Shown: positions 12,126 to 50,532, numbered from the stretch's first letter. The stretch: DNA of 64,000 bases from an uncultured Eggerthellaceae bacterium (GCA_903789415.1 CAIFEG010000004.1:1-64000), one strand, 5' to 3'. Program-made: numbers and translations. Notes: generated by a model not told the origin, from the sequence alone.

Positions 12126-13124
12126 TTAGCCCCGTGCACGCTGGTATGCCTGTGTGAGATCGAGATCCATGTCCACTGCGGTATCGATGCCGGGTAGATT
12201 TCCGTTGTTTGAATACTGCCACATGGTGAAATCAAAATTTGTCTGCGGAACGGCACCGTAACTTGCCACCCACAACGGGTAGTTTGAAAGCGAACTTAAA
12301 TCATAGTTTCCCAAGTCAGAGGCATTTCCGTATACCGTTGCCTGATAGCCGCGCTGGTTTACTTCATCGGCAAACGCCTTCATGATCTGGGTGTATTGAT
12401 CCTGCGTTAAATTGCTTGCACGATTTTGTGCCCCATTGGTGGGCTCCAAGTCGAATGCGATGGGGTACGCAATATCGGCGTTATTCAGCTGGCTTACCAC
12501 GTAATCTGCTTCCTGAACAGCCTCATCAGTGGTTGTAGCCTGGCTATAAAAATACACTCCCACATCAAGCCCGGCGGCACGCGCGTTCGCGAAATTTTCG
12601 TCAAAATAGGCATCTTTCACAATAGTGCCGGTATCGGTTGATCGATATCCCACGCGAATATAGGCAAACTGAATGCCGTAATCGTGCACCTGTGTCCAAT
12701 CGATTTCGTGCTGATGTTCAGAAACATCCACCCCCACACGCGAAAGTGTCGCAAGCCCACTTCGATATTCGTAAAGCCCTTTATCGTCTAAGGACAAATT
12801 ATTCCAATCGTAGGGTGATTGATATACTTGCTCGCTTGCGGTGTTATAGCTGGCAGTTTGGGTGACAGGTTCGCGGCTTGAACATGACCCTAACACATGG
12901 GCAACAACTGCAATAATGGCCAGAATTACGATAAGTAGAACAAGGCGAGGCCGCGTTTTGGTGGTGTAGTGGTATCGATGCTTTGCCGCGAAACGTATCG
13001 CCTTCTCGTTTATGCGGTTGTTCGGCGAAGGATTTCTTTGTGAGGATGATCTTTGCGTATGTCGTCCGGTTCTGGGCAAATACAACCACTCTTTCGTATG
13101 TAGGCTTTCACATGAAAGCGCCAC
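12126..13124 (-). CDS. GH25 family muramidase (lysozyme), probably a membrane-anchored lipoprotein.
   Basis: GH25 catalytic region DVSEHQHEIDWTQV..IQFAYIRVGY..VGVYFY. N-terminal hydrophobic segment ending LGSC (lipobox-like). Confidence 0.75.
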   Translation of the reverse strand: MALSCESLHTKEWLYLPRTGRHTQRSSSQRNPSPNNRINEKAIRFAAKHRYHYTTKTRPRLVLLIVILAIIAVVAHVLGSCSSREPVTQTASYNTASEQVYQSPYDWNNLSLDDKGLYEYRSGLATLSRVGVDVSEHQHEIDWTQVHDYGIQFAYIRVGYRSTDTGTIVKDAYFDENFANARAAGLDVGVYFYSQATTTDEAVQEADYVVSQLNNADIAYPIAFDLEPTNGAQNRASNLTQDQYTQIMKAFADEVNQRGYQATVYGNASDLGNYDLSSLSNYPLWVASYGAVPQTNFDFTMWQYSNNGNLPGIDTAVDMDLDLTQAYQRARG

Positions 13125-36800: not shown

Positions 36801-37044
36801 CGACGACGTACGCGTGTTTAACAACCGCGGATCGGTCGTTGTTGCCGCAATGGTCACCGATCGCATGACGCCGCTTACCGTCAACGGAAGAACAGTTCAC
36901 GAAGTTGGCCTGATTCACCACTGGGGCTGGGCAAACAAGTTCAGTACCGGCGATACAGTGAACGACCTCACACCGAATGTCGGCGATCCAAATAGTTATA
37001 TTCCTGAATACAAGGCATTCCTTGTAGACATTGAGAAGGCTTAG
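33886..37044 (+). CDS. fdnG: Formate dehydrogenase-N alpha subunit, TAT-exported, Cys-type (no selenocysteine).
   Basis: TAT signal RRGFFK. Mo-bisPGD enzyme motifs. Active-site RVCHSSTVAGLAPTFGRG aligns to E. coli RLUHGPTVASLAPTFGRG with Cys replacing Sec. Confidence 0.85.
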   Translation: MDLTRRGFFKASALAAAGVAALGLSGEAQAYADPEFSADSDWKLVDTEEYTNVCCYCAGGCGSVVSVRDGKIVNVEGDPDNPINEGGLCPKGAAMMQLHDIVDPETGKWIPNPNREYAPKVRRPGASDWEPISWDDAFDEIARHIKDTRDATFQVTDENGVTVNRTEAIASYGGSQQNSEEQYLILKAMRMLGIIAVDNQARVCHSSTVAGLAPTFGRGSMTNHFSDIANTDYILTCGSNCAECHPVSMKWINRALERGAKWIVVDPRFTRTAANADVYLPIRSGTDIAFYGGMINYIFEHDRWQHEYVMHYTNISYIMNDDFDFDPETGLFNGWNEDTQTYDTTQWGYATDHTEEWDTSENGTYSWVSRPGVPQFTPPTVQVPRTDPTLQDPHCVYQIMRNHYSRYTLDTVSDICGMNKDALEQVYELYTRSGASDKSGTIIFALGQTQHTYGAQNCRSMAMIQLLLGNIGMPGGGCNAFRGEPNVQGATDMAMTVYDLPGYLHWPTVATTPSLADWLHHETYSSGYYTNKPKFMVSFLKEYFGKNATVDNDYGYDWLPKIGSNNLTHIRTFEAMRDGTMKGYFAWGMNPANSAPNAKFARQAMANLDWLVVADWFETETASFWKAPDMDPSQVQTEVYMLPAAEIFEKPGTIVNSGRWLQWRNKAVEPAEDTMTDLEMVNQIWKRVAALYRSEGGVGADCILNTAWDYDIGGKASFEKVAWAMNGYRVNSSDFHANKPDLLTGYSQLQADGSTACGIWIYSGYYNNSAEPMNPAAQPVGSRGLRNPGGVGLYPDFAFSWPNNRRVLYNRASCDPQGNPWKHDQVLEEWDGTRWISNDVPDFTATTTSNGTTTQVPPNDNAFFMRWEQRGCFTTTQMPDMPIPEFYEPIESPAENELNHRQNSPRAMFTKDPSLQKGDPDQYPLVATTYGITEHWQTGQQTRSCPVLDEIAPKQFIEIDRDLADEKGIQNGDDVRVFNNRGSVVVAAMVTDRMTPLTVNGRTVHEVGLIHHWGWANKFSTGDTVNDLTPNVGDPNSYIPEYKAFLVDIEKA

Positions 37045-37056
37045 GGGTGATAGAAA

Positions 37057-37941
37057 ATGGCTGATCTAGCAATTTATTATGACTCCTCCAAATGCACCGG
37101 ATGCAAGGGCTGCATGGTTGCGTGCAAAACCTGGAATAACCTGCCTTCGCCGATCGAGCTGAATTCGCAGCCATATTCGGGCACGTATCAAAATCCCGTT
37201 GACCTGAACGAGAACACACGCACCATCATCACGTACAAAGAGCGTAAACGCGAAAATGCGTACGGCATTGACTGGGCGTTCGGCAGCAGACGCTGCATGC
37301 ACTGCACCGATGCGGCGTGCGTAAAAGTGTGCCCAAGTGGGTGCCTGTATCATGATGACAACGGGTTTGTGGTTATGGATATTGACAAATGCATCGGCTG
37401 CCAGTATTGCCGTGCAGCCTGCCCGTTTGATGTGCCGCGTCACACCGGAGTGAACGTGCGTGGTGCCGATATCAAGATCGATAAATGCGATGCATGCGCG
37501 ACACGTGTGGCCCATGGTATGAAGCCCGCATGCGTGACCACCTGCCAGCCAAATGCGCTGGATTTTGGTCCGCGTGAAGAGATGCTTACGCGTGCACATG
37601 AACGTGTCGAATGGCTGCACAAAAGAGGCTACGCCGATGCGCGTGTGTACGGTGAGACCGAAGCCGGTGGCACGCATGTCATTATGGTGTTGAAATACGA
37701 CATTTCTCAATATGATTTGCCTGAAAATCCGAATACCAATAAGGGCGCTGCTTCCAATGTTATGAAACCACTTACCGCACTTGCAGCAGTTGGAATTGTG
37801 GGTGGCTTAGGTATCACCTATGCACGTGCACATGGCTATCATCGTGACCATATGGCGTACGACACTAAAACTCACGACGTTGTTGATATGGATAAAGACG
37901 AAGTGGAACGTCATATCGATAAGGAAGCAGGTGAGCGCTAA
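37057..37941 (+). CDS. fdnH: Formate dehydrogenase-N iron-sulfur (beta) subunit.
   Basis: Four CxxCxxCxxxCP ferredoxin motifs. C-terminal TM anchor. Confidence 0.85.
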   Translation: MADLAIYYDSSKCTGCKGCMVACKTWNNLPSPIELNSQPYSGTYQNPVDLNENTRTIITYKERKRENAYGIDWAFGSRRCMHCTDAACVKVCPSGCLYHDDNGFVVMDIDKCIGCQYCRAACPFDVPRHTGVNVRGADIKIDKCDACATRVAHGMKPACVTTCQPNALDFGPREEMLTRAHERVEWLHKRGYADARVYGETEAGGTHVIMVLKYDISQYDLPENPNTNKGAASNVMKPLTALAAVGIVGGLGITYARAHGYHRDHMAYDTKTHDVVDMDKDEVERHIDKEAGER

Positions 37942-37942
37942 G

Positions 37943-38734
37943 ATGGAACAGAAGGAACAAAGATACATCCAGCGTCATTCTATGCAAACTAGAATCACGC
38001 ATGACATTGTTGCGGTTGCCTGCATCTGGTTGACGTTTAGTGGCTTGTTCGTATTTATCCCCGCGCTTGCCTCGGCATTCCCCGATTTTACGCGCGCAAT
38101 GCGTGTGTCTCACCGCATCGTGGGTTGCATTCTGATTATCACGCCAATCGTGAGCGCGATCCTTTCACCACGTGGCGTGGGTAGATTCTTCAAGAAATAC
38201 TTCACGAAGTGGACGCCTGAGGATAAGGAATTCACGAAGAAATTCGTCCCATACATGCTGAATGCGCGTAATGTGCACATGCCTGATCAGGACGAAGTGA
38301 AGTCGGGCCAGCGCTTTGCTGATGGCTTGATGGTCGTCGGCGTGCTACTAATGGCGATTAGCGGCTTGGTGCTGTGGCTTGGCACGTCGGTATGGCGTGT
38401 AAGCGGTGACACTGCTTCTGTTATGCGCACCATCCACGATATTTGCTTCCTTATTCTAGTGATCTTTGTAGTTGCTCATGTCTACCTGGGTGCCGGCATC
38501 TTCGAGCCGTACAAAGGAACAGGAAAGCTTATGTGGGGCAACGGCCAAGTGAGCGAATCGAACGCCTTGTACCACTGGGGCTTCTGGGCGCGCAAAGAGC
38601 TTGAAAAGGGCGACAAGGTGTTGCTCAAAGACGAAAATGACCAGGTTGTTGCGCGTGGCAAAGAAGCCGTTGATCTCGGTAATACCTACATCGAGGAAAA
38701 GCTCAAGCAAAAAGCACCACTCAAACAGGAATAA
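37943..38734 (+). CDS. fdnI: Formate dehydrogenase cytochrome b556 (gamma) subunit. Start at ATG 37943.
   Basis: Four TM helices with conserved His. Starts 1 nt after the fdnH stop. The ORF-track upstream extension overlaps fdnH. Confidence 0.75.
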   Translation: MEQKEQRYIQRHSMQTRITHDIVAVACIWLTFSGLFVFIPALASAFPDFTRAMRVSHRIVGCILIITPIVSAILSPRGVGRFFKKYFTKWTPEDKEFTKKFVPYMLNARNVHMPDQDEVKSGQRFADGLMVVGVLLMAISGLVLWLGTSVWRVSGDTASVMRTIHDICFLILVIFVVAHVYLGAGIFEPYKGTGKLMWGNGQVSESNALYHWGFWARKELEKGDKVLLKDENDQVVARGKEAVDLGNTYIEEKLKQKAPLKQE

Positions 38735-39038
38735 TGCCGAATTAAGAATAAACCGACGGAACAGGCGCGAATACCTTGTGACTCCTCTAAGAAACGTCTG
38801 TTCCGTATACGACCCCCCTCCTTTTATGCGCATGTTGGATGTGCAACGATCGCTATCATATGAAGCGAAACGTGCACGAAGACATGCGCATGCATTCATG
38901 TCGAGCGAAAATTTTCAAATACATTTGGGAATTGCCGATGTGCAAATCAATTCACGAAAATACGTTTGCAGAATCACTTTTGCGCAGAGAACGCAATTAA
39001 ATAACAAACTATAAAAATCAACGATCGGAGAATATGCG

Positions 39039-39947
39039 ATGGATGTAGATGCCATCAAAAAAGCGGCAAACTTCTACCGCAATCATGCAGGTCATCTCAA
39101 AACAGACCAGCTCGGATTTTTTGTTCAGCTTTTTGAAACGTGTGATGCGCGGAGCAAAGAATTGGGTGCACCTCAAGCCGCCAATTCGAATGACCCGTTT
39201 GATCCGGCGCATCCTGATAAAAACGAACTTGACCGGGAATACTGGATCGGCGAAACGGTTCTTTCAAAACACCCTATTGCGGTAGAGCCAATTGAATTTG
39301 CCGCAACGCTCCAGCAGATTTCCGATGTGGTGGCGAAAAATCCAAATCTTGCACCGGAAACTTCTCGGGCACTTTCCTCTTTTGCGTGGGATGCGTTTGT
39401 GTTCGACAATGATGTTGAGATGCTCGTGAACCACCCAAATAAGATGTTTGCTGCAACGCTTACGGTGGATGTTTCAGAAAATGTTGCCGATGCTACAGCT
39501 GATGCCTTCCATGTGGTGATGGCGTACGCGCTCCGTACGCATTTGGATGCCGTATCTCATACAATACATGAGGCGTTTAACCCGCGCGAAAGCATCGTGA
39601 AGGGTTCAAATCCGCTGCGGTGCCCGGTTTGCGGATCCGAGCCGTCTCTTTCCCTTGTAGGTCCGGCTGCTGGCACTGACGGAAATGGTCGCGAGCAGTA
39701 TTGCCCGGTATGTGGGTTTACCTGGCCGTTTGAACGCATTCGTTGTGGAAAATGTGGGAGCAAAGATCAATCGAAGCTGCATTACACAAGTGTTGAGGGA
39801 GATCCGGCGCACCGCATTCAGACGTGTGATGTATGCGGTGAACATAGCCTGGTGGTATTCCAGCCAGACCTCAAATGTGAGCCGTCTCTTGAAATCGAGG
39901 ATGTGATTATGGGTCCGCTTGCGGCGCTTGCAAAATCGCACGTCTAA
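39039..39947 (+). CDS. fdhE: Formate dehydrogenase accessory protein FdhE.
   Basis: Four CxxC pairs (CPVCGSE, CPVCGFTW, CGKCGSKD, CDVCGEH) in the FdhE arrangement. Confidence 0.8.
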   Translation: MDVDAIKKAANFYRNHAGHLKTDQLGFFVQLFETCDARSKELGAPQAANSNDPFDPAHPDKNELDREYWIGETVLSKHPIAVEPIEFAATLQQISDVVAKNPNLAPETSRALSSFAWDAFVFDNDVEMLVNHPNKMFAATLTVDVSENVADATADAFHVVMAYALRTHLDAVSHTIHEAFNPRESIVKGSNPLRCPVCGSEPSLSLVGPAAGTDGNGREQYCPVCGFTWPFERIRCGKCGSKDQSKLHYTSVEGDPAHRIQTCDVCGEHSLVVFQPDLKCEPSLEIEDVIMGPLAALAKSHV

Positions 39948-40226: not shown

Positions 40227-41516
40227 ATGAACCATGAAGTAATAAAGCAGGTGATATTTGACCAGCGTCGTGTCATTCAGCGTATGCACATTACTCCTCG
40301 TCAATACCGGCTAGAAGTGCAGGCAAACTACATCATTGTTGGCATGCGTCGTGCGGGAAAGTCCACCCTTCTTTATGAAAGGGCGCGTGAACTTGTCGCC
40401 CAGGGGGCGGACTGGAGCCAAATAATCTACATTAATTTTGAAGACGAACGGCTTCTCGGATTTACGCTTGCTGATTTCAACGATGTTGTTCAAACGGCAG
40501 CAGAGCTTACGAACGACGAGCCATACTACTTTTTTGACGAAATCCAAAACATTGAGGGGTGGGAGCGCTTCGCACGACGCATGGCTGATGAGCAGCGGCG
40601 GGTCTTCATCTCTGGCAGCAACGCCGAGATGCTCAGTGGTGAGATGGCGCAGCGTCTTGGGGGACGGTATCTGGTGTGCGAGCTCATGCCTTTCAACTTT
40701 GCCGAGTACCTCTCTGCTAAGAATATTGATTACGACGAGGAGGCGCGTCTTACTGCGGAGCTTGTTGGCAAGATTCAGGCTGCAGCTGCTGACTATCTGA
40801 AGAATGGCGGTCTTCCAGAGTCTATCGAATTTCTTGACAGACGAACGTATGCTGAGAATGTCTACCAGAAGGTACTTCTGGGAGATATTGCTGCTCGACA
40901 TTCGATTCGCAACATTGCTACGCTGCGAATGCTCATTAAGAAGATCGCAGAGACAGTCACAAGCGAAGTAACTTTCTCGTCGCTCAGAAGATCAGTTGTT
41001 GCGACAGGTGCCTCTATTAGCACAGATTCGGTTATTGATTATGTTGGTTATGCAGAGGATGCCTATCTCCTCTTCCATACGAGCAACTATGTTGCGCACT
41101 TCGCCCAGCGAGAAAGCACCCCGCGTTATTACTTTGGAGATAATGGTCTGCTTGACCTTTTCCTGGTAGATAAGGCATCGTTGCTGTTGGAGAATGCGGT
41201 CGCACTGAGTCTCAAACGGCGTTTCGGCGACAAAGTTTTTTATTTCAAATCTTCAAAGACCAGCATAGATATAGATTTCTACCTCCCAGACCAATCACTT
41301 GCTGTTCAGGTGGTGTATACCCTTGACGAAAACAGTAAGAAGCGTGAGCTATCGAGTCTCGATGCCTTGTCGCGTGACAAAAGACTTGCACCCAAGCGGT
41401 CTGTAATCGTCACTTATGCAGATGATGAGAGAACCATCGATACCGGTGATTCTTCCATCGAAGTTATCCCGCTTTGGAAGTTTCTTTTGGAAAATTCTTT
41501 ACTCAATGAAAACTGA
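40227..41516 (+). CDS. AAA-family ATPase with DUF4143 domain.
   Basis: Walker A GMRRAGKST, Walker B FFDEIQ, 429 aa. Confidence 0.65.
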   Translation: MNHEVIKQVIFDQRRVIQRMHITPRQYRLEVQANYIIVGMRRAGKSTLLYERARELVAQGADWSQIIYINFEDERLLGFTLADFNDVVQTAAELTNDEPYYFFDEIQNIEGWERFARRMADEQRRVFISGSNAEMLSGEMAQRLGGRYLVCELMPFNFAEYLSAKNIDYDEEARLTAELVGKIQAAAADYLKNGGLPESIEFLDRRTYAENVYQKVLLGDIAARHSIRNIATLRMLIKKIAETVTSEVTFSSLRRSVVATGASISTDSVIDYVGYAEDAYLLFHTSNYVAHFAQRESTPRYYFGDNGLLDLFLVDKASLLLENAVALSLKRRFGDKVFYFKSSKTSIDIDFYLPDQSLAVQVVYTLDENSKKRELSSLDALSRDKRLAPKRSVIVTYADDERTIDTGDSSIEVIPLWKFLLENSLLNEN

Positions 41517-41560
41517 GTCAATTTTAATTGAGTTAAATAAAATTGAGTAAAGAGGATCGT

Positions 41561-42940
41561 ATGACGTTTTATGGTCGAGAAAATGAGCTTGCGCTCCTAC
41601 AAAAGACATTCGAAAGTCGCAAACAAAACGTGACGCTTGTCTATGGACGCAAACGCGTTGGCAAAAGTGAGCTCATCAAGCAGGCGCTCACGTGCTCGAA
41701 TTCACATGCCATTTACTATGAATGCAAGGAGATTTCGGGAGGGGGCAACGTTGCGAGCTTGGCGAGTCTCGTTTCGGAAACGCTCGAACTTCCTCCGCTA
41801 GGCTTTTCAACTATAGAAGCATTGCTCGAGTTCCTTTTCAGACAGGCAAACAAATCGAAGTTTATCCTTGTGCTTGACGAATATCCGTATCTGCGAAGCG
41901 CCGTCAAGGGGCTTGACAGCATACTTCAGACACTTATCGATCGGTTTGCCAATACGTCGCAGCTCTCACTCGTGCTTTGCGGCTCGTATATCGAGGTGAT
42001 GCGAACATTACTTGAGCATGAGAACCCTTTGTATGGCCGAGTAGATCACACGATTGCGCTCGAGCCGATGGACTATTATGACTCGGCGCGCTTCTACTCA
42101 AACTTTTCCGCAGAAGATAAGGTGCGCCTGTACAGTGTTTTTGGCGGCATTCCTTATTACAACAAGTTCATCGATTCCACGGCAAGTGTTGATGAAAACA
42201 TCATGGGCTTGTTGGTAGAGCCTGACTCTCGGCTTGAAAATGAAGTGCCGCTGTATCTGGGGTCTGAGATATCTAAAATTACGAATGCGAACGAAGTATT
42301 CGGAGCACTCGCGCAGGGATATGCGCGATATAAGGACATCCTCGATCAGTCGCATGTGACGAGTGGTCCTGCTATGGTAAATGTTCTGGACAAGCTTATC
42401 AGCATGGAGCTCGTTCAGAAGCAGACGCCCATCAATGATCCGGTGAATCGGCGGAAAACCAGCTATCGTATTGTGGATGGGCTCTCGCTTTTTTATTACC
42501 GGTATCTCTTTCGCTATTCCTCGCAGCGGATGGTCATGAGCCCCAAGGCTTTCTTCAAACGATATGTGCACGATGACCTGGAAACAAACTTTATACCGCA
42601 TCGTTTTGAGGAGGTGTGCCGTCAGTATCTCATTCGCCAGAATCGTGCAGGGAAAATGCCAGAAACGTTCTCGGAAATTGGAAGATATTGGTATGATGAT
42701 CCGTCAACGCACACAAACGGCGAGTTTGACATCGTGACAAAAGACCCGAAGGGCTATGCATTCTATGAAGCGAAGTTTCGCTCAACGCCGGTAACGACAA
42801 AAATGATGGAAGAGGAGATCGCACAGGTGAGAGCCACGGGTCTTACAAGCTATGCGTACGGCTTTTTCTCGCGCTCCGGCTTTAAAGGAACTGCTCCGGC
42901 CGATACGCGCCTTATCTCGATAGAAGAGCTATATGGATAA
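41561..42940 (+). CDS. ATP-binding protein (archaeal-type ATPase with DUF234 C-terminal domain). Start at ATG 41561.
   Basis: Walker A GRKRVGKSE, Walker B VLDEYPY. AAAGAGGA SD before 41561. Confidence 0.65.
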   Translation: MTFYGRENELALLQKTFESRKQNVTLVYGRKRVGKSELIKQALTCSNSHAIYYECKEISGGGNVASLASLVSETLELPPLGFSTIEALLEFLFRQANKSKFILVLDEYPYLRSAVKGLDSILQTLIDRFANTSQLSLVLCGSYIEVMRTLLEHENPLYGRVDHTIALEPMDYYDSARFYSNFSAEDKVRLYSVFGGIPYYNKFIDSTASVDENIMGLLVEPDSRLENEVPLYLGSEISKITNANEVFGALAQGYARYKDILDQSHVTSGPAMVNVLDKLISMELVQKQTPINDPVNRRKTSYRIVDGLSLFYYRYLFRYSSQRMVMSPKAFFKRYVHDDLETNFIPHRFEEVCRQYLIRQNRAGKMPETFSEIGRYWYDDPSTHTNGEFDIVTKDPKGYAFYEAKFRSTPVTTKMMEEEIAQVRATGLTSYAYGFFSRSGFKGTAPADTRLISIEELYG

Positions 42941-43017
42941 TTTCATCGAACTGTTGTCGAAACCCGCCGTATTTCAATGAAGAGGCGATTGCAGAAAAGA
43001 AGTTCTTGCAGAACGAG

Positions 43018-43821
43018 CTATAATTCCGCAGGAATTTGTTCTGTTTGATACGGAAACACGATTCTCAGCTTATTGCTAATGGGCGTGACGGGCACCATAT
43101 ATGAACGCACGTGATAGAACTCTTTGATGGTATCTTCGTTAATCACGGATTTTGTGGGACCCATCAGTTGTTTCCCATTGCTTCCAAGAAATAGCGTGTC
43201 GTCCGAAATCCTAAGCGCGTTGTTGGGGAAATGGGTGTTGATTATGCATGTGGTATCACCTTTATCCGCAATGCGCTCTATTACATCGAGCACACGCAAT
43301 TGGTTTGCCATATCCAGGTTGGATTCGGGTTCATCTAAGATGAGTACCTCTGGATCACTTACCAGTGCACGTGCGATCAGCACCATCTGCAACTGACCTC
43401 CGCTTACGCGGTCACAATTTCGCTCAGCAAGGTCAGCGAGGCCGAGCCATTCGAGTGCCGCCTGTGCTTTTTCATAATCCTCTTTTGATGGTGTAGAGAA
43501 CAGTGAAGAAGAGGCGTTGAGCCCCATGACCACCGTGTCAATGACACGATACGAAAATGAGCTTTGTTTTGCCTGGGGCACATAGCTAATATGCGACCAC
43601 ACTTCTTTATGGGAATATGAATGGAATGGAGCGCCGTTGAGGAGTGTTTCACCTTCTTTCCATGGCAAAAACCCCATCAGACATCTGAGTAGCGTTGTTT
43701 TCCCAACGCCGTTTGCGCCCAGGATAGTGAGTACCTTGTTTTCGGGCACCTTTAAATTCAGGTGGTCAAATAAGAGCTTTCCGCGATATCCGAAGCATCC
43801 ATTGTGAATTTCTACTTTCAT
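43018..43821 (-). CDS. Iron-chelate/cobalamin-type ABC transporter ATP-binding protein (FecE/BtuD family).
   Basis: Walker A GANGVGKTT, signature SGGQLQMV, Walker B LILDEP. Start MKVEIHNG with a GGAGGGAG SD. Confidence 0.85.
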   Translation of the reverse strand: MKVEIHNGCFGYRGKLLFDHLNLKVPENKVLTILGANGVGKTTLLRCLMGFLPWKEGETLLNGAPFHSYSHKEVWSHISYVPQAKQSSFSYRVIDTVVMGLNASSSLFSTPSKEDYEKAQAALEWLGLADLAERNCDRVSGGQLQMVLIARALVSDPEVLILDEPESNLDMANQLRVLDVIERIADKGDTTCIINTHFPNNALRISDDTLFLGSNGKQLMGPTKSVINEDTIKEFYHVRSYMVPVTPISNKLRIVFPYQTEQIPAEL

Positions 43822-44918
43822 TTTGCACTCCCTCCGGTTTTTTGAAGCAGTGACATAAAGACAGGTGCGCCAATAATTGCCGTGAGAATAGACAAAGGAA
43901 TTTCCGTTCCTGTTGCACACCGTGCAATATCGTCAATAAGTAAAAGGTATGCTCCTCCCATCAGCATTGATGAAGGAATTAGGACGCGGTGATCGTTCCC
44001 TACGATCATTCGACACATATGTGGAATGACTAAGCCGATCCAGCCAATAACGCCGCAGAGCGACACGGTTACTGCCGTCATAAGGGTTGCGATAACAAGC
44101 ACAAGAATGCGCATTTTGCTTACATCGATGCCAAGCGAAGCAGCTTCTTCTTCGTCAAGGGATAGAAGGTTGAGCTTCCAACGCAGCAGCCAAAGCAAGA
44201 TGCAGCATGGCAAGATTATGATGGCAGAGGTAACTACGTCTCCATATGATGAAGAGGTAAGCGATCCCATCAGCCATGTGACGATAGCAGGCAGTTGGTC
44301 ATATGGGTCGGCCACATATTCCAAGAGTGAAACAAGCGCTGAAAACAGAGAACTTACGATTACGCCTGCAAGGACCAACATATACAGCTGTGTTTTCTTT
44401 TGCACACGTCCCAGAAAAATTACTATCACCAGGGCGATTAATCCAAAAGCAAGTGACCAGGCTTGGATTCCGATTGTTCCTACCGAAAGAAGAATGCCGA
44501 GTGTTGCGCCAAAGCTTGCTCCGGAAGATACACCCAGAATGTCGGAGCTGACGAGGGGGTTCCCGAACACCGCTTGATATGTTGCACCGGCTTCGGCAAG
44601 TGCCGCGCCCACGAGGATTCCCATAAGAATACGGGGCATTCGCACCGAAAATACGATGTTTGATGCCATAGGATCGACGTTTGACTGAGTTAATGTTCCC
44701 CAGAGTACCTGAATGATATCTGAGGGTGAAAACTGGTAGCGGCCAAGGCAGAGAGAAAAGATAAACGTTGCGATCAGAAGTATGAGCAGGGCAAGGATGG
44801 CAATTCCGCCATGCTTATGTCGCTCGTTGGTCTGGCTTTGGAGTGCGCCGGTCTTGCTTTGGCCGGCGGGAGTTTTCGCGGCTTTTTCTCCTTTGATGAC
44901 CTTGTTTTTGCTGCTCAT
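43818..44918 (-). CDS. FecCD-family ABC transporter permease.
   Basis: 366 aa, about 9-10 TM helices. 4-bp overlap with the ATPase gene. Confidence 0.85.
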   Translation of the reverse strand: MSSKNKVIKGEKAAKTPAGQSKTGALQSQTNERHKHGGIAILALLILLIATFIFSLCLGRYQFSPSDIIQVLWGTLTQSNVDPMASNIVFSVRMPRILMGILVGAALAEAGATYQAVFGNPLVSSDILGVSSGASFGATLGILLSVGTIGIQAWSLAFGLIALVIVIFLGRVQKKTQLYMLVLAGVIVSSLFSALVSLLEYVADPYDQLPAIVTWLMGSLTSSSYGDVVTSAIIILPCCILLWLLRWKLNLLSLDEEEAASLGIDVSKMRILVLVIATLMTAVTVSLCGVIGWIGLVIPHMCRMIVGNDHRVLIPSSMLMGGAYLLLIDDIARCATGTEIPLSILTAIIGAPVFMSLLQKTGGSAK

Positions 44919-46135
44919 GATGCTGACTTCTTTACGAACGCATGGTCAACAAGTTTGAGGAACGAGGTTCCATATGGGCACAGATGCTTATCCCATGACA
45001 GACGGCTCGACACCGCAGCATGAGGAACTTCCACAAACGCTGTTCCTTCACTCACATACGGCTGGAGCAGGCCATCGCCTACCACGAGGTCATAATTACC
45101 CGAACCTGCCAGGTCAAGCGCTTGAAGCTCGCTTATCGTTCCATGATCACCCTCAGAAAGGGGCTGATCCCAATCAAAGAATGTCGCGGTTTCTACCTTC
45201 GCAAATCCCATATCTTCGATAAGTGACTGGCGTATGCTGTGTGCAAGCACTTGCTCTCCGATGACAAGAGCGCGATCGTGACCACCAGTCGCCTCTGGCC
45301 CTTGTTCAGCAGGTTTACCTTCCGCTACCATCTCCAAATTACGCAGAAAACGCTGCACAGGTTTCTCACCTGATAGAGAACCATCAATATACGGAATACC
45401 GAGCGCCTGGTTCATCCAGGCTGCAACGTCATGTCCGCTTCGCGTAAGTACAACGTTACATGCAGCATTCTGCGCTTCGGCCAGTTCATCGAGCGATGAA
45501 CCCATGCACCAGCAGCTTTCGATGGCCCATCCCGCATCTTCCAAAATGTCCTTGATGGCCTGTACATTTTCATTGTTAAGCAGATCTAATGGAGTTGCTC
45601 CAAGCAGATTTACACTTTTGGTGTGACGCTGCTTTTGAGAGCGTGGCTTTGGGTTAGGAAAGACAAGATCACGAGCGAGTTTAAGCATGGCAAGTGACAC
45701 GCCATAGTCGTAGTAACGTGTGCCCGTAGTTTCAAATGCAAGCACCGGCGTGTGAATCTTTCGCTGCAGCTCTTTACCAAGAGCCTTTAAGTCAGTTCCC
45801 AAAATCATGGGATTCGGCGAGCCAATGATGGCAACAAAACGCCCCCCAACTGCCTCTTGAGTATGCGCACTGGCTTCTACAAATAAGTCATCTCGCCCGA
45901 ATAGCGCCTGCATATCATCGAGGGCGGAAGTGAATACGCGTGCATGGCTGCTGTAGGCGCGCGGTTCATCGTATCCTACGAAATTTCCGGTGCACCCCGC
46001 AGGGTCATGGAAAATGATGGTGCCATCAAGCTCAAATAATGCCGATGCGACGCCGGAATAATCGCCAGCGAACGTAGGAAGATACATGTGAATACGCGTA
46101 TCGTTTAAGAGATCTTGTGGGAATTTTTCATTCAT
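44915..46135 (-). CDS. Nitrogenase component-1-like oxidoreductase subunit (NifK/NifN/BchB-like).
   Basis: 406 aa, Cys-containing Nif D/K-fold sequence. Translationally coupled to the upstream D-like gene. Confidence 0.65.
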   Translation of the reverse strand: MNEKFPQDLLNDTRIHMYLPTFAGDYSGVASALFELDGTIIFHDPAGCTGNFVGYDEPRAYSSHARVFTSALDDMQALFGRDDLFVEASAHTQEAVGGRFVAIIGSPNPMILGTDLKALGKELQRKIHTPVLAFETTGTRYYDYGVSLAMLKLARDLVFPNPKPRSQKQRHTKSVNLLGATPLDLLNNENVQAIKDILEDAGWAIESCWCMGSSLDELAEAQNAACNVVLTRSGHDVAAWMNQALGIPYIDGSLSGEKPVQRFLRNLEMVAEGKPAEQGPEATGGHDRALVIGEQVLAHSIRQSLIEDMGFAKVETATFFDWDQPLSEGDHGTISELQALDLAGSGNYDLVVGDGLLQPYVSEGTAFVEVPHAAVSSRLSWDKHLCPYGTSFLKLVDHAFVKKSAS

Positions 46136-47592
46136 TAGACCACCAACGTTTTCTCCAACAGCATCTTGCGTGTATCGCGCGTTTCCGTAAGTGCATGTTT
46201 TACTTCGCTTAGCAGGTATTCAATGGCCTGGAAACCAAATGGCTGCTGATCAACACCCCATGGCACGCACGTCGCCTCTGGGCACAGACGCCCTACATCA
46301 AATCCCACGGCAATATCAACTGGTTCATTCAAGCCGGTAACGGTTGCCATACGAGGGTTTGTGCTCGGATAGACGGGAAGCGTGGGGTTTACCTGCATGA
46401 GTTCATCCACATAGGGGGCATCTGATGCAGCTGCTTCCTCGGCGACGAGCGCGACGATGTGTGCACCGGCCTGCTGAAGCAAGGCTGCAATTTCGAATGT
46501 CGAACCATTCAGGCTTGATCCGACGGCAACATTTTTCCCTGAAAGCCAAGAGCGAGCTTCCTCAATCGATTGCTGTGCATGCGTTTTATATGGCTCGTAT
46601 TCGAGCTTGACGCCAAGTGCTTCGCCAAGTGCATCGTACATATGTGCTACATGATCGATCGACATGGGCATGCCTGTGAGCTTGTACGGTGTGCCCCATT
46701 TCTTTTTCATTTCATCGCAGGCCAAGCGGCCGAATGCTTTAAGCAAGATATTGAAATGCGACAATCGTATCTCGGCGAATTCATCGAAGTTTTTGCATGC
46801 CGCTATTTGATGGACGCTTTGATACCCTGCCTGTTTGAGCAGCGGATATAGCTCAGATTCAGCCGCGACAGGAGCGAAACCACCGATAATATTGATGGCG
46901 TGTTCGTCGTGTGGTCCTTGGGGAAGATGCTCAAGCACATGATATATGGTGCGCTGCAGGGTGACCGGAGGTGGCGTGTGTGACGTCATAGTCACGGGGT
47001 CCATGTGGCCATCCACAAACGGAATCCCATATTTGTGCTCCATTTCTGCAGCGAGACCACGGTAATCTGATCCAAGCAGATCGTCCACGCAGGTGCTGAA
47101 TAGTAAGAACGCGCGAGGCCGTGGCCTGCGATGCTCCATAATCCACGCCACCGCTTGTTTGACACGTTCAAGATGTGTGCCCATTACTAAATCTGATTCT
47201 GTGGCGTCCAGGTAATAGATGCGATCGCGGTATCCATTCATGATTGCTGATAACGATCCGTGCCGTCCGCATCCAGCAGGAGCGGTAAACAGGATCACCG
47301 AATCAGGCACCTGTATTGCTCCGCGAACAATGCCCCATCCACCGGCGCACGGAGCCACATACCGCACGAATCCTTTTGGGGTGAGACACCCTTCGGTAAT
47401 TGGCAGTCCCACTACCTGGGATCCGTCTGCAGAATCTTCCAACACATCACTTGGCCGTGATGTGCGGTCCACCATATCTTTGAGCGGTACTGCTACGCCC
47501 GCATCTGTCTGTGTCCTCTGTGTATAAGGAGGATTTTTCTTAGACGAGAGCTGCGCAGCGTCGCTGCTTGTATGACGCGTCGTCTGTTTCAT
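46135..47592 (-). CDS. Nitrogenase component-1-like oxidoreductase subunit (NifD/NifE/BchN-like).
   Basis: 485 aa, conserved Cys ligand regions (EGCLTPKG.., APAGCGRHG). Confidence 0.65.
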   Translation of the reverse strand: MKQTTRHTSSDAAQLSSKKNPPYTQRTQTDAGVAVPLKDMVDRTSRPSDVLEDSADGSQVVGLPITEGCLTPKGFVRYVAPCAGGWGIVRGAIQVPDSVILFTAPAGCGRHGSLSAIMNGYRDRIYYLDATESDLVMGTHLERVKQAVAWIMEHRRPRPRAFLLFSTCVDDLLGSDYRGLAAEMEHKYGIPFVDGHMDPVTMTSHTPPPVTLQRTIYHVLEHLPQGPHDEHAINIIGGFAPVAAESELYPLLKQAGYQSVHQIAACKNFDEFAEIRLSHFNILLKAFGRLACDEMKKKWGTPYKLTGMPMSIDHVAHMYDALGEALGVKLEYEPYKTHAQQSIEEARSWLSGKNVAVGSSLNGSTFEIAALLQQAGAHIVALVAEEAAASDAPYVDELMQVNPTLPVYPSTNPRMATVTGLNEPVDIAVGFDVGRLCPEATCVPWGVDQQPFGFQAIEYLLSEVKHALTETRDTRKMLLEKTLVV

Positions 47593-47594
47593 AT

Positions 47595-48344
47595 TTATTC
47601 CTCCATTAATTTATCCGCAATAGACTGAAACGTCTGCGAAATGGGCAATGAGGAATCCATCTGTTCGACTGTCATGCCTTGGTCTTCAGCTTGCTGAATA
47701 TTGTCATCACGCGGAACAATACCCAAAATCTGAGTATGGATACTGTCAGCAAAGTTTTGGACAATCTCCTTTTCATTGGGGACATTTCGACAATTCAGGA
47801 TAATTCCACGCAAACGCGCATAGCCGCGTGACGAGAATGATTCAAGTGCTTTGTTGATATTGTTGGCAGCATAGAGTGCCATCTTTTCCCCTGAGGTAAC
47901 GATAACCACTTCATCGGCGTATCCTGCCCGCAGAGGTGTAGCAAAACCACCACATACTACGTCTCCTAAAACATCGAAGAAAACGTAATCGGGGTCGTAT
48001 TTGTCAAATGCTTCGAATTCTTCAAGTGTCTCGAATGTTTTTACGATACCGCGGCCTGCGCAGCCACTTCCTGGGGTTGGGCCGCCCGCCTCAACACAGG
48101 CGACTCCCCGGTAGCCCTGGGTCACAATTTGATCCAGTGATGGACACGTTCCACCGTGTTCCATAAGTACTTCCATCACCGGTTTTATGGTTGTGCCTTC
48201 AAGTAAGTTAAATGTCGAATCGGCCTTGGGATCGCAGCCAATTTGCATGACCCGTTTTCCTTCATCTGCCATACAAGCAGAAAGAGTTGATGTTACGGTT
48301 GACTTCCCGATACCGCCTTTTCCATAAATTGCAATTTTTCTCAT
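47595..48344 (-). CDS. NifH/BchL/CfbC-family ATP-dependent reductase (nitrogenase iron protein-like).
   Basis: P-loop GKGGIGKST, switch regions, and both 4Fe-4S Cys (CVEAGGP, VCGGFA). 249 aa. Confidence 0.85.
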
Positions 48345-48478
48345 TACATCTCATCCGTTTCATACACTGCCAATATTTAACGAGTGGGTAGTGAGCACCC
48401 GCGCAAAACGTGAGCATGATGAGCATGGACTTTGCTGTCATAACTTGGATGGCTTAAGCCCTGTGCTCGCTATTGCTG

Positions 48479-49645
48479 CTATTCCTGCGTGTGATCGAGC
48501 ATCTGCGAGAGTTGATCATCAGAAATTTGGTAGTCATACACGTCTTGATAGAAGGTGGTTACTTCTGCTTTCATGTCCATATCTTGGAATAAATCAGGAT
48601 GCATGATCTTAGAGAGCCACTTAATCATGAGAGGTGATTCCACTGATGGGGGATCCCAGCGATATGCGCCGATAGGAATCTTATACACATGGTTGTGCTG
48701 TACGGCGGCAACGCCTGACCAGTCTTCTCCCGAAAGCGTGTTATTCATTAGGTCTGAAGGCATAATGTCGGTGAAGTTGCCGATGAATATATATTCTGGG
48801 TTCCAGGTAAGAATTTGCTCCATATCCACTTTTGCGCTTTGCTGCTGAAGTGTTGCGGCCGGGTCGTCCGACCCACTTGTACTCAGCAAATATGGAGTGA
48901 ACCCTGAGCCGTCTACGGTAAGGTCATCAGCCAAGTGGATTGCAACTGGTTTATCCGCATCAGAAAGTCCTGATAGCCTGTCCGTCACCTCAGCAACCTG
49001 AGTGTCGTAATATGAAGAAAGGAAATCTGCACGATCTTGTCTTTGAGTCATTGTGCCAATGATGCTCAGCCAGGTCTTTAAATCATCGACGGTACCGTAT
49101 TGCAGCGCGATTACTTTCAGCCCGGCGTCTTCCATCGACTGAATACTTTCAGGTTGTGTTGTCCATTGGAATACCACATCAGGCTGCAGTGCAAGCAATT
49201 GTTCGACATTTACGGTAAAGTTGCGCGCCGTCCAGTCTGTATTAATATTTGCCATCTCAGGATACATATCCTTCAACGTGCTTTTTTCGTAGGCAGGCAT
49301 CGATGCGGGGTTGCACCCAACCAGCGTGTCGGTATTGCCCATAAAAGCAAAATAGATTGATGGGAACGGAATAATGGTTGTGCAGACGCGTTGAGGCACA
49401 CTGTCAAATGTGATGGTCTTACCCAACTGGTCCGTTACTTCAATTGAAGCTGTCGAAGTGGACCCCTGGTCATTGCTTTGCGAACCTGAATTAGAGCCCG
49501 AACTCGAATCAGAGTTTCCCGATGAACAGCCAGCCATTCCAAGTAAGCCGGAGGCAGCAAGCAATCCGGCTCCCATAACAAAATGCCGACGGTCAATTAA
49601 TCTATTTCGCTTGAGCGAATAGCTGTTATTCTCTTTGCCTGCCAT
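48479..49645 (-). CDS. ABC transporter periplasmic-type substrate-binding lipoprotein (FecB/BtuF class).
   Basis: RR-containing signal plus lipobox (LGMAGC). Class III SBP fold sequence. Confidence 0.75.
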   Translation of the reverse strand: MAGKENNSYSLKRNRLIDRRHFVMGAGLLAASGLLGMAGCSSGNSDSSSGSNSGSQSNDQGSTSTASIEVTDQLGKTITFDSVPQRVCTTIIPFPSIYFAFMGNTDTLVGCNPASMPAYEKSTLKDMYPEMANINTDWTARNFTVNVEQLLALQPDVVFQWTTQPESIQSMEDAGLKVIALQYGTVDDLKTWLSIIGTMTQRQDRADFLSSYYDTQVAEVTDRLSGLSDADKPVAIHLADDLTVDGSGFTPYLLSTSGSDDPAATLQQQSAKVDMEQILTWNPEYIFIGNFTDIMPSDLMNNTLSGEDWSGVAAVQHNHVYKIPIGAYRWDPPSVESPLMIKWLSKIMHPDLFQDMDMKAEVTTFYQDVYDYQISDDQLSQMLDHTQE

Positions 49646-49674
49646 AAGAGTCCTTTCAATTATTGATGGAGAAA

Positions 49675-49727
49675 GTTAGGTAAACCTAACATGTTTTATA
49701 AGCTCAAAATAGTTAGGGTTACCTAAC
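49675..49727. promoter_or_regulatory. Two palindromic operator-like sites (GTTAGGTAAACCTAAC and GTTAGGGTTACCTAAC, 37 bp apart) in the promoter of the SBP/nif-like operon. Their half-sites resemble a DtxR/IdeR iron box.
   Basis: Perfect 7-2-7 and near-perfect inverted repeats read directly. TTAGGT..ACCTAA half-sites are shared with the iron-box consensus TTAGGTTAGCCTAACCTAA. Confidence 0.45.
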
Positions 49728-50200
49728 ATGTCAAGAAAAAAATGAGTTTTAACGAATTGTTAAAAAAGCGGATTTAATCAGGCTATACACGAATTTCAAA
49801 ACGGACAGTGTTCATTTAAATGGGTGTCATTATTAGATGCAAACGCTGATGTTCAACAATGGTTGGATGTTATTGGAATGCAGCTCTAGCAAAACTGAGT
49901 CAATTCTGATGGAGCAGAGAACAGTGAAGACGATGCGTTTAGGCCCATCGCCGCATTTAAGAATCCGTTAGCTATATATTCTTTCAAATATTAAAAAATT
50001 AAGGCTAAATATTAAATATTTTGGTCAAATAATAACTTTGTTCGATGGAGTATTGGCGAACCTGCTCCGGGGAATGCCGCTGAGTTTTGGCGGAATTCTG
50101 CTGAATTTTCATTTCACATACCGAAGTAGCGAAGAAATTTTTGTTGCTATATACTTATTCAGCGCTACCTAAAAACATAACGTAGCATTTTTATTCGGTT

Positions 50201-50291
50201 GGAGAGATGTCCGAGTGGCCGAAGGAGCACGATTGGAAATCGTGTATACGCCAAAAGCGTATCTGGGGTTCAAATCCCCATCTCTCCGCCA
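50201..50291 (+). tRNA. tRNA-Ser (anticodon GGA), CCA encoded.
   Basis: Cloverleaf with a long variable arm. Anticodon loop TGGAAAT. T-loop GGTTCAAATCC. Confidence 0.85.
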
Positions 50292-50333
50292 GTTCACATA
50301 TTTACCGGTGAATTTCGCAACCGGTCCATCCGT

Positions 50334-50426
50334 GGAGGGGTGGCAGAGCGGTTGAATGCGGCGGTCTCGAAAACCGTTTTACCCCATATTCGGGTAACGA
50401 GGGTTCGAATCCCTCCTCCTCCGCCA
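50334..50426 (+). tRNA. tRNA-Ser (anticodon CGA), CCA encoded.
   Basis: Cloverleaf with a long variable arm. Anticodon loop CTCGAAA. T-loop GGTTCGAATCC. Confidence 0.85.
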
Positions 50427-50468
50427 TTTTTTGATTCAAAATTTTTTGGTCGAAAATTGATCCAAAAA

Positions 50469-50532
50469 GGCAATCCTGTAAAAAGGTAATCCTATAAAAA
50501 GATAATCCTGTAAAAAGGCAATCCTGTAAATG
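50469..50532. repeat. Four tandem 16-bp repeats (GGCAATCCTGTAAAAA-like) immediately 3' of the tRNA-Ser pair.
   Basis: Period 16, copies at 50469, 50485, 50501 and 50517. Confidence 0.8.

Follow-up and report, generated by a model that had tools for sequence, protein, structure and literature searches.

Nitrogenase homologs carry out some of the hardest reductions in biology. According to a 2026 Chemical Reviews article (PMC13474568), Groups IV-D, IV-E, and VI are uncharacterized, and within Group IV a function has been verified or proposed for no clades other than Nfa, CfbCD, Mar, and Isr. The same article names as the main obstacle that genomic context tells little about the roles of the uncharacterized clades. 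Herein we describe a clade whose context is unusually informative: it includes partnership with an importer, an operator of the metal-repressor type, and, in diderms, TonB receptors. Our subject is a six-gene operon in a 64,000-nucleotide stretch of DNA (the window) from an uncultured Eggerthellaceae bacterium (GCA_903789415.1 CAIFEG010000004.1:1-64000), which encodes a nitrogenase-like reductase of three subunits (H, D, and K) together with an ATP-binding cassette (ABC) importer. With moderate confidence, we propose that this operon is an "import then reduce" module that acts on a metal chelate and responds to metal, most probably through repression by iron.

The clade has been noticed before. 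Dos Santos et al. (2012; PMC3464626) described a clade of uncharacterized function comprising Mlab_1040/1039, Dhaf_1539/1540, and proteins of gut Firmicutes, with two cysteines in D (at the positions of NifD C88 and C154) and one in K (NifK C95 / NifN C44). This pattern equals the family-wide pattern reported below, the likeness being one of cysteine positions. For a small number of genomes, these authors also remarked on co-located ABC transporter genes, and they raised cofactor assembly as a possible role, but gave no transporter class, regulatory evidence, or cross-phylum synteny. Thus, neither the clade nor its bare association with an ABC transporter is new. What is new is the importer class, the near-obligatory, order-shuffled, and cross-domain nature of the linkage, the TonB receptor and the substitution by a second importer type, an iron-box-like operator common to Actinomycetota and Bacillota, and, in a Coriobacteriia subclade, a predicted minimal cluster site of the NifEN type. 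Beyond the 2012 remark, we found in the literature no functional link of nitrogenase-like enzymes to siderophores, TonB, heme, iron acquisition, or FecCD, and the 2026 review mentions neither siderophores nor this importer association. A proteomics study of M. voltae on pyrite and a 2026 preprint on the expansion of Mar proved to have no bearing on the question. The initial annotation of the window had called the coupling of the reductase to the importer not functionally characterized. We likewise found no such characterization, and the review lists clades of this sort as uncharacterized, although the association itself was already on record in 2012.

On the importer side, the closest described systems are MolBC-A (HI1470-72), YiuABC, and NiuBDE/CeuE, all of the FecCD/BtuCD class. 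The binding protein encoded in the window reaches a template modeling (TM) score of 0.82 to MolA and 0.81 to Helicobacter pylori CeuE. However, identities are 17-25%, at which the ligand is not transferable, and those systems lack a nitrogenase-like enzyme. A further likeness is to iron-regulated uptake systems for heme or siderophores, namely hmuTUV-hmuO (under DtxR), fhu/viuB with their ferric-siderophore reductases, and chuW/hutW of anaerobic heme degradation, wherein an importer is co-expressed with a chelate-processing enzyme under a DtxR/Fur-type operator. Processing in those known systems falls to an oxygenase, to a reductase with flavin or [2Fe-2S], or to a radical S-adenosylmethionine (SAM) enzyme, whereas here the processing enzyme would be an ATP-dependent, three-subunit nitrogenase homolog.

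An importer operon that encloses a nitrogenase-like reductase

Six co-directional open reading frames on the minus strand occupy positions 43018-49645 of the window. These genes and the sites upstream of them, in order of transcription, are as follows.

49706..49734, minus strand: sigma-70-type promoter, TTGACA (-35), 17-nucleotide spacer, TATTTT (-10); the best promoter-like site in 42800-50300, with 10 of 12 matches
49712..49727, no strand: Operator 1, palindrome GTTAGGTAACCCTAAC, which contains TTAGG-N4-CCTAA; within the -35/-10 spacer
49675..49690, no strand: Operator 2, palindrome GTTAGGTTTACCTAAC; 30-45 nucleotides before the start codon of the binding protein
48479..49645, minus strand: binding lipoprotein, 388 residues, class III / Peripla_BP_2 (Pfam, 93 bits)
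47595..48344, minus strand: NifH-like Fe protein, H, 249 residues (Pfam Fer4_NifH, 308 bits)
46135..47592, minus strand: D subunit, 485 residues, NifD/NifE-like (Pfam Oxidored_nitro, 111.9 bits)
44915..46135, minus strand: K subunit, 406 residues, NifK/NifN/BchB-like (Pfam Oxidored_nitro, 90.5 bits)
43818..44918, minus strand: FecCD/BtuC-type permease of a type II ABC importer, 366 residues (Pfam FecCD, 306 bits, full length)
43018..43821, minus strand: importer ATPase, 267 residues from ATG 43821 (Pfam ABC_tran, 109 bits)

The cut-off for Oxidored_nitro is 28.6 bits, and the scores of the binding protein, FecCD, and ABC_tran matches are likewise above cut-off. All six products named in the initial annotation were recovered at their coordinates and in the expected Pfam families, with D and K at the lengths given there. 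The genes had been described as overlapping or abutting, which holds from H to the ATPase gene: H and D are separated by a 2-nucleotide gap, D and K overlap by TAATG, and ATGA overlaps join K to the permease gene and the permease gene to that of the ATPase. It does not hold for the binding-protein gene and H, which lie 134 nucleotides apart and enclose the only real spacer in the operon. The longest reading frame for the ATPase begins at GTG 43920; ATG 43821 is preceded by a GGAGG ribosome-binding site. Because the latter start forms the ATGA overlap with the permease stop and agrees with homolog lengths of 262-270 residues, ATG 43821 is most likely the true start. With a binding protein, a FecCD permease, and an ATPase encoded together, the transporter has the makeup of a type II ABC importer (BtuCD/FecBCDE class). 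Its genes share the operon with those of the enzyme, an arrangement that implies co-transcription and partial translational coupling. The GC content of the operon is not distinct from that of its surroundings. A chance arrangement is excluded by the recurrence of these six genes as a set in dozens of genomes that are not related to one another.

Indeed, a survey limited to a single genome for each species yielded 36 loci, and tblastn with the six proteins of the window placed H, D, and K (HDK) beside the binding-protein, permease, and ATPase genes in about 33 of them. Counting metagenome and plasmid loci, the linkage extends to approximately 40 loci, from Methanospirillum and no fewer than nine phyla of bacteria. 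The neighborhood survey thus recovered the linkage in Coriobacteriia (Curtanaerobium, Eggerthellaceae, Paraeggerthella), in Clostridia (Enterocloster citroniae, Oscillospiraceae, Peptococcaceae, Syntrophomonas, Wukongibacter), and in other phyla. These include Desulfobacterota (Desulfosarcina, Desulfobacteraceae), Dehalococcoidia and other Chloroflexota, Acidobacteriota, Spirochaetota, Eisenbacteria, and the archaeon Methanospirillum. Further cassettes were found in Dethiosulfovibrio (Synergistota), in one more genome of 3 Mb, and on a 424 kb replicon of Treponema saccharophilum. The named host genera are physiologically strict anaerobes. Because the cassette occurs in cultured organisms, its function is directly testable; such hosts are Enterocloster citroniae DSM 19261, Curtanaerobium respiraculi, Paraeggerthella hongkongensis DSM 16106, Treponema saccharophilum, Dethiosulfovibrio, and Methanospirillum stamsii.

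The linkage persists while the arrangement changes. Among the closest homologs of D, the order binding protein-H-D-K-FecCD-ATPase is kept amid different flanks. Across all loci there are at least four orders, namely B-H-D-K-P-A, H-D-K-B-P-A, B-P-A-H-D-K, and B-P-A-D-K-H, where B, P, and A denote the binding protein, permease, and ATPase. The link also holds in reverse, as P0217, an abundant gut protein that is homologous and 49% identical to the binding protein, led to another H-D-K-binding protein-permease-ATPase cassette. In diderm loci, one or two TonB-dependent receptors are encoded directly upstream. Moreover, two Chloroflexota loci lack the FecCD importer, and there a gene for a family-5 (NikA/Opp5A-like) binding protein abuts K, with Opp-type ATPases encoded nearby. 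Because the order is shuffled, functionally similar partners are swapped, and the spread crosses domains, the comparative evidence argues strongly that the enzyme acts on the compound imported by the transporter or on a derivative of it. The coupling of the reductase to a chelate-type importer, first noted from the window alone, is therefore conserved across phyla. All-against-all clustering of 556 neighboring open reading frames revealed no broadly conserved seventh gene, and nifB, nifE, and nifN are absent from the cassette in every locus surveyed. The surrounding genes vary from locus to locus. As no other gene is broadly conserved, the six genes appear to form a self-sufficient, portable module.

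The enzyme and its predicted cluster site

The H subunit carries the P-loop GKGGIGKS and the cluster cysteines C95 and C131, both invariant (32 of 32 family members), as had been read from the window sequence. It matches Clostridium pasteurianum NifH at E=3e-72 in a search of PDB sequences. On NCBIfam models, H scores 325 bits for nifH (cut-off 394), 309 for CfbC (402), and 218.8 for BchL (345), all below cut-off. Because H scores near the NifH and CfbC models and far lower on BchL, membership in Group IV is plausible. A complete Fe protein thus stands beside two adjacent PF00148 paralogs, as in two-component enzymes of this superfamily.

The paralogs D and K are far more divergent. The best NCBIfam match of D is nifE with 58.7 bits (TIGR01283, cut-off 505.1), and that of K is also nifE, with 51 bits against cut-offs near 500. 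Models for dark-operative protochlorophyllide oxidoreductase (DPOR) and chlorophyllide oxidoreductase (COR) fare no better (BchN, 36.9 bits versus a cut-off of 420; BchB, 48.2 versus 490; BchZ, 22.3 versus 529), and neither do CfbD (28.2 versus 268), nifD with K as the query (33.9 versus 653), and the alpha-subunit subfamily with D (33.9 versus 486). Among PDB sequences, D is closest to NifE (E=5e-8), and K to the NifEN fusion and BchB (E=2e-6 to 1e-5). An AlphaFold model of D (predicted local distance difference test score 78, predicted TM score 0.80) matches the NifD/K/E/N folds in Foldseek with a match probability of 1.0. Regardless, it is equally far from NifD, NifK, NifE, NifN, MarD, and BchB (TM 0.53-0.61, 12-17% identity), such that the fold search placed D in no nitrogenase subfamily. 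A profile built from 14 D sequences retrieved 388 clusters at 50% identity with E<1e-30, D-K fusions included, and RefSeq names such proteins only "nitrogenase component 1". On these sequence comparisons, the H/D/K branch is deep and separate, yet not rare, and the enzyme is nitrogenase-like but outside every characterized family that could be tested. The expectation in the initial annotation that the proteins would not group inside such a family was borne out for the families compared. For the unassigned Group IV clades, IV-D and IV-E, the evidence is indirect, namely the NifH-like H and this position apart from the characterized families.

Several uncharacterized or characterized groups were considered individually. 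CfbCD (Group IV-B) was rejected because CfbD is a homomer, whereas D and K are two distinct subunits that would form a heteromer, and because the CfbC and CfbD scores are under cut-off. Group VI NFL enzymes of the Elusimicrobia type have a NifH that is about 40% identical, is sister to the BchL group, and is encoded in neighborhoods rich in radical SAM genes (bioRxiv 10.1101/765248). They were set apart by the 325 bits of H for nifH versus 219 for BchL and by the lack of radical SAM neighbors. MarHDK (Group IV-C) was likewise rejected: Rhodospirillum rubrum MarD (9FMG/9D9U) matches D at E=0.002 across 75 residues (phmmer), there is no L-cluster cysteine, and no cassette includes a radical SAM gene. 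IsrHDK (Group IV-F) was set apart by context, with no IsrB radical SAM gene and no sulfonate-transporter or sulfur-regulated surroundings in any locus.

These same observations bear on the idea that the module assimilates organosulfur compounds by cleaving C-S bonds of an imported sulfur compound, in the manner of Mar and Isr. Group IV contexts have so far mostly concerned sulfur metabolism (PMC13474568), and cysteine desulfurase genes lie close to some cassettes. However, besides the distance of D from MarD and the missing L-cluster cysteine, we found near the cassettes no MarB/IsrB-type radical SAM gene and no sulfonate, methionine, or cysteine-synthesis neighbors. Moreover, sulfonates and thioethers are not known to be taken up by importers of this class, and the operator belongs to a metal type; we therefore regard an organosulfur role as highly improbable.

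The cysteines of D and K permit a closer look at what the enzyme might hold. The D subunit of the window has a cysteine at all three P-cluster positions, with C82, C108, and C168 aligned to C62, C88, and C154 of NifD and to C37, C62, and C124 of NifE. A lysine occupies the position of NifE C250 / NifD C275, which serves the L-cluster or the iron-molybdenum cofactor (FeMo-co), and no cysteine is conserved at this position across the D family alignment. In K, the single cluster cysteine is C48, and its motif FHDPAGC48TG aligns with FHGSQGC44TA of NifN and the HGP.xC motif of NifE. Family-wide, C108 and C168 of D (38 of 38) and C48 of K (34 of 34) are invariant, and C82 of D is variable. Residue 30 of K is a cysteine in 28 of 34 members and an alanine in the window; the fourth ligand mostly alternates between D82 (the window and loci L015 and L041) and K30 (most members). 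Asp25 of K is also invariant (34 of 34), though the alignment did not establish its equivalence to the Asp36 ligand of DPOR BchB. Three more co-varying cysteines of D (79, 165, and 195) are present in most members and missing from the Coriobacteriia subclade of the window. Perhaps this variation reflects different cluster types inside one family.

In NifEN (PDB 3PDI), a single [4Fe-4S] cluster is bound by a 3+1 all-cysteine site. The NifEN cysteine ligands were also taken from Dos Santos et al. (PMC3464626). By this yardstick, D and K keep a NifEN-type 3+1 cysteine site for one predicted inter-subunit [4Fe-4S] cluster and nothing more complex, a pattern that matches the single-[4Fe-4S] enzymes of the NifEN or DPOR type. 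The initial annotation had expected both subunits to conserve cluster-ligating cysteines. This is true of D, with two invariant and three in the window, but K keeps only one of the three P-cluster cysteines throughout the family.

A minimal but genuine N2-fixing nitrogenase is effectively refuted by this ligand pattern. The similarity of H to C. pasteurianum NifH would suit such an enzyme, yet D lacks the FeMo-co cysteine, the six cysteines that hold the P-cluster in nitrogenase are reduced by the loss of two of the three in K, the scores are 10-fold under the nifD, nifK, and nifE cut-offs, and no locus has nifB, nifE, or nifN in the cassette. The enzyme is thus almost certainly not a true nitrogenase, as had been concluded at the outset, although the argument then offered from subunit sizes and the absence of nifB/E/N/V is a weak one.

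Comparison with NifEN raises the possibility first mentioned in 2012 that the module assembles a cofactor, with imported (thio)molybdate, nickel, or aqueous FeS being built into a cluster by a NifH/NifEN-like scaffold for use by other enzymes, such that the import would not itself be a substrate. D is nearest to NifE and the N-terminus of K nearest to NifN, both share the 3+1 cysteine site and a NifH-type ATPase partner, and the extra co-varying cysteines of most members could hold a larger cluster. Furthermore, MolA is the nearest characterized relative of the binding protein, suf or cysteine desulfurase genes adjoin the cassette in several loci, and a coupling of metal transport to assembly was proposed previously (PMC3464626). 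Unlike NifEN, however, the enzyme lacks an equivalent of Cys250 of NifE, the L-cluster ligand, has no nifB, nifX, or nifDK partners, is encoded within an importer operon, and resides in non-diazotrophs. Neither a recurrent NifB, radical SAM, or NifX-like partner or client enzyme near the cassettes nor a molybdenum cofactor (Moco) riboswitch or ModE-like context was found, the iron-type operator described below is unexpected for molybdenum or nickel uptake, and the module moves alone between very different genomes. On balance, we consider cofactor assembly improbable.

The tetrapyrrole-reducing relatives offer a different analogy. Like DPOR, COR, and CfbCD, the enzyme pairs an Fe protein with a component-1-like protein that is predicted to hold only a [4Fe-4S] cluster, and BchB chains of DPOR are the second-best solved relatives of K. 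It likely shares with these enzymes the ATP-gated transfer of electrons to an organic or chelate substrate in a pocket equivalent to that of FeMo-co. The DPOR site consists of three cysteines and an aspartate, whereas the site here is all-cysteine. In addition, those enzymes belong to biosynthesis, whereas this one is tied to import and occurs in non-phototrophs that are mostly non-methanogens.

Regulation, candidate ligands, and a possible mechanism

Operator 2 is placed 37 nucleotides downstream of Operator 1, and the two palindromes are near-identical. The sequence TTAGGNNNNCCTAA occurs twice in the window, both times at this promoter (expected 0.02; 0 of 100 shuffles reach 2). The right half of Operator 2, TTTACCTAA, equals the right half of the Corynebacterium diphtheriae tox operator, and the TTAGG-N4-CCTAA core is contained in the 19-bp DtxR/IdeR iron-box consensus, TTAGGTTAGCCTAACCTAA. 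The DtxR-type core pattern is 58-fold enriched upstream of cassettes and is also found there in Curtanaerobium, Clostridia metagenome-assembled genomes (MAGs), and a Syntrophomonas. The pattern GTTAG-N6-CTAAC is 56-fold enriched before the first cassette gene and is present in at least 14 loci, usually as pairs approximately 90-100 bp apart. The hosts are Coriobacteriia, Peptococcaceae, Oscillospiraceae, Enterocloster, other Clostridia, and Syntrophomonas, and Paraeggerthella has a one-mismatch copy about 60 nucleotides before the binding-protein gene.

In Curtanaerobium respiraculi (locus L001, 12595-14137), the cassette is followed immediately by a DtxR-family gene (12595-12966) and then by sufCBD-sufS, whose promoter bears the same palindromic box at 13101. 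No locally encoded regulator was found near Clostridia cassettes, where the neighbors are housekeeping genes. Arrays resembling Fur boxes precede two Syntrophomonadaceae loci and that of Wukongibacter, but their overall enrichment is only 5-fold and the count is confounded by AT-rich intergenic DNA, making them supportive in these three loci only. Taken together, the sites suggest that the operon is subject to metal-responsive, most probably iron-responsive, repression. Elsewhere, a perfect GTTAG-N6-CTAAC (locus L018, 13088) stands before a GntR/aminotransferase (MocR-type) gene 600 nucleotides downstream of the cassette.

The binding protein provides hints regarding the ligand. Its N-terminus (49520-49645) comprises a twin-arginine-like DRRHFV motif, the lipobox LLGMAGC, and a Ser/Gly/Asn-rich linker of about 25 residues. 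Because of the signal motif and lipobox, it is taken to be an anchored surface lipoprotein. A homolog (P0171) has a Pfam TAT_signal match, which suggests that the protein may be exported as a folded lipoprotein in a manner dependent on twin-arginine translocation (Tat). Among PDB sequences, the protein matches 4OVK, a Veillonella structural-genomics protein to which it is 45% alignable, at E=6e-67, followed by MolA (1e-22), H. pylori CeuE (9e-15), and BtuF (0.03). Its structural model (predicted local distance difference test score 83) has as Foldseek neighbors 4OVK, 4HN9 from Eubacterium eligens, MolA, YiuA, and H. pylori CeuE. The heme binders PhuT, ShuT, HmuT, and BhuT, as well as BtuF and the binders of hexadentate siderophores, are more distant. 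MolA binds molybdate or tungstate, YiuA binds Fe(III) with partial chelates, and H. pylori CeuE binds Ni-His2. Thus, fold and sequence would favor a small metal complex that is contacted directly by the protein.

No NCBIfam importer equivalog reaches its cut-off. The best matches of the permease are BtuC, FhuB, and FecD, and those of the ATPase are heme, corrinoid, and FecE-type ATPases (HmuV among the models). Four TonB receptors adjacent to HDK all score best on the heme/hemoglobin receptor model, with 248-264 bits, which is under the cut-off of 317 bits; they reach 160-178 bits on the siderophore model and about 135 on the B12 and copper models. For the family-5 proteins encoded in place of the usual binding protein in two Chloroflexota loci, the closest models are NikA/Opp5A, far under cut-off. 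Of the substrates proposed in the initial annotation, a metal chelate is favored by the fold of the binding protein, the signals for heme are mixed, and those for a corrinoid have weakened. The leading candidates are a small iron complex and heme or another metalloporphyrin, with a thio-metal or nickel species as a further candidate.

A corrinoid is the least supported of these substrates. Salvage or remodeling would require that the importer handle cobamides as BtuFCD does and that the enzyme reduce the corrin ring or the cobalt. The BtuC and corrinoid-ATPase matches, albeit below cut-off, are in keeping with this, and Dehalococcoidia and methanogens depend on corrinoids. Also, some neighboring methyltransferases weakly resemble the corrinoid-protein-associated CpaM, and an MtaA/URO-D-like methyltransferase fused to a B12-binding domain is encoded upstream of a TonB receptor and HDK in two loci (L020, 2348-4051, a Desulfosarcina MAG; a homolog in L031, an Acidobacteriota MAG). 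However, no cobalamin riboswitch was found in the 42-52 kb region of the window or in 17 diverse loci, nor was any other riboswitch, Moco and NiCo elements included. Furthermore, the match to BtuF is poor and the fold is nearer to that of metal-complex binders, the TonB receptors score lowest on BtuB-type models, and the operator is of the iron type. Corrinoid processing therefore seems very unlikely to us.

Heme is a more serious contender, as import of heme or another metalloporphyrin followed by reduction of its macrocycle could free iron without oxygen, making the module an anaerobic counterpart of hmuTUV plus heme oxygenase. Strict anaerobes cannot use heme oxygenase, and an iron-type operator suits heme-uptake operons. 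The TonB receptor scores point the same way, and the many invariant Trp, Tyr, Phe, and Met residues of the binding-protein family, together with its near-invariant Cys111, are compatible with such a ligand. In addition, the characterized nitrogenase-like enzymes that contain only a [4Fe-4S] cluster all act on tetrapyrroles (PMC13474568), and D and K have a site of only this kind. Conversely, the binding protein is closer to MolA, YiuA, and the Ni-binding CeuE than to PhuT, ShuT, HmuT, BhuT, and IsdE, the receptor scores remain below cut-off, and no ChuS/HmuS, ChuW, or ChuX-type gene recurs near the cassettes. We judge heme reduction to be possible but rather unlikely.

Under our preferred "import then reduce" reading, the lipoprotein would capture an extracellular metal chelate, in diderms after uptake by a TonB-dependent receptor, and the FecCD/ATPase pair would carry it into the cell. 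There, ferredoxin or flavodoxin would reduce the Fe-protein (H) dimer, and ATP hydrolysis by H2 would drive low-potential electrons through the [4Fe-4S] cluster of D/K to the imported molecule, which would sit in the pocket equivalent to the FeMo-co site of nitrogenase or the protochlorophyllide cavity of DPOR. Reduction would make the ligand usable, most likely by releasing its metal, presumably iron, under anoxic conditions, which are closed to heme oxygenase and other routes that depend on oxygen. The cost in ATP would point to a ligand beyond the reach of ferredoxin-level reductants, such as an aromatic macrocycle or a very-low-potential Fe(III) complex.

Several facts weigh against this proposal. 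Ordinary ferric siderophores need no ATP-driven reductase in ferredoxin-rich anaerobes, and therefore iron release would call for an unusually recalcitrant ligand. DtxR-family proteins can also sense manganese, the inner operator bases in Clostridia differ from those of DtxR boxes, and both types of box are missing from many loci, among them every diderm and archaeal locus. The ligand evidence conflicts as well, given that the fold of the binding protein, the TonB receptors, and the NikA-like protein do not agree. Finally, the recurrent methyltransferase neighbors described below have no place in the model.

It is tempting to speculate, although only tentatively, that this is the first nitrogenase-like enzyme dedicated to the acquisition of a nutrient metal, an ATP-driven, very-low-potential reductase with which strict anaerobes, among them common Clostridia and Coriobacteriia of the human gut, free iron from an imported and otherwise irreducible chelate, with reduction of the heme macrocycle being the strongest form of the idea. 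If metal is indeed freed without oxygen, then nutrient acquisition would be a new role for the nitrogenase superfamily. This would help explain the competition for metals among gut and sediment anaerobes, and the binding protein and enzyme could serve as targets or markers in microbiome iron ecology. If the heme-macrocycle form is true, it would constitute an oxygen-independent route to heme iron unlike radical SAM cleavage by ChuW or dechelation by HmuS.

Recurrent neighbors and flanking DNA

In at least seven lineages, genes for class I SAM methyltransferases, one of them an O-methyltransferase by type, adjoin cassette genes or overlap with them, and perhaps these enzymes methylate the substrate or product. 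They have generic family matches only and are encoded at the following positions of the surveyed loci.

L007, 2593-3471: class I SAM methyltransferase
L023, 12339-12932: class I SAM methyltransferase
L024, 9438-10082: class I SAM methyltransferase
L029, 8100-9134: class I SAM methyltransferase
L044, 10378-10983: class I SAM methyltransferase
L040: class I SAM methyltransferase

Paired half-transporter ABC exporters (ABC_membrane plus ABC_tran, about 580 residues) are encoded no more than a few kb away from the cassette in L023, L024, L025, L040, and L043. A DUF2325 gene is also among the recurrent accessory neighbors, which gave generic or no family matches. In addition, a pair of proteins of about 210 residues adjoins the cassette in three distant lineages (L007, 10502-11143; L020, 13547-14816; L022, 5907-7170) and has no Pfam, NCBIfam, or PDB match.

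In the window, the flanks of the operon hold unrelated genes, including AAA-ATPases, a tRNA-Ser pair, an IMPACT-family gene, and a Na+/H+ antiporter, with FdnGHI/FdhE further off. The features of note are listed below.

33886-39947, plus strand: formate dehydrogenase-N-like cluster, with a Tat-signal molybdopterin subunit of 1052 residues, a 4Fe-4S subunit, a cytochrome b561 subunit, and FdhE
40227-42940, plus strand: AAA+ ATPase pair, AAA_14/DUF4143 and ATPase_2/DUF234, between the operon and the formate dehydrogenase cluster
50201-50291 and 50334-50426, plus strand: tRNA-Ser pair, anticodons GGA and CGA, about 550 nucleotides upstream of the operon promoter
50426-50458: second tandem repeat, 15-bp unit, 2.2 copies
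50464-50530: tandem repeat, 16-bp unit AAAAAGGCAATCCTGT, 4.2 copies, between the IMPACT-family gene and the tRNAs

Together, the tRNA-Ser genes and, on the opposite side, the AAA-ATPase genes may be signs of a hotspot at which the portable cassette inserts. No direct link between the formate dehydrogenase cluster and the operon was found. The DUF4143/DUF234 ATPase pair (40227-42940) represents gene types that are usual in accessory or mobile islands. The formate dehydrogenase cluster shows that the host makes enzymes containing heme b and a molybdenum or tungsten bis(pyranopterin guanine dinucleotide) cofactor (Mo/W-bisPGD).

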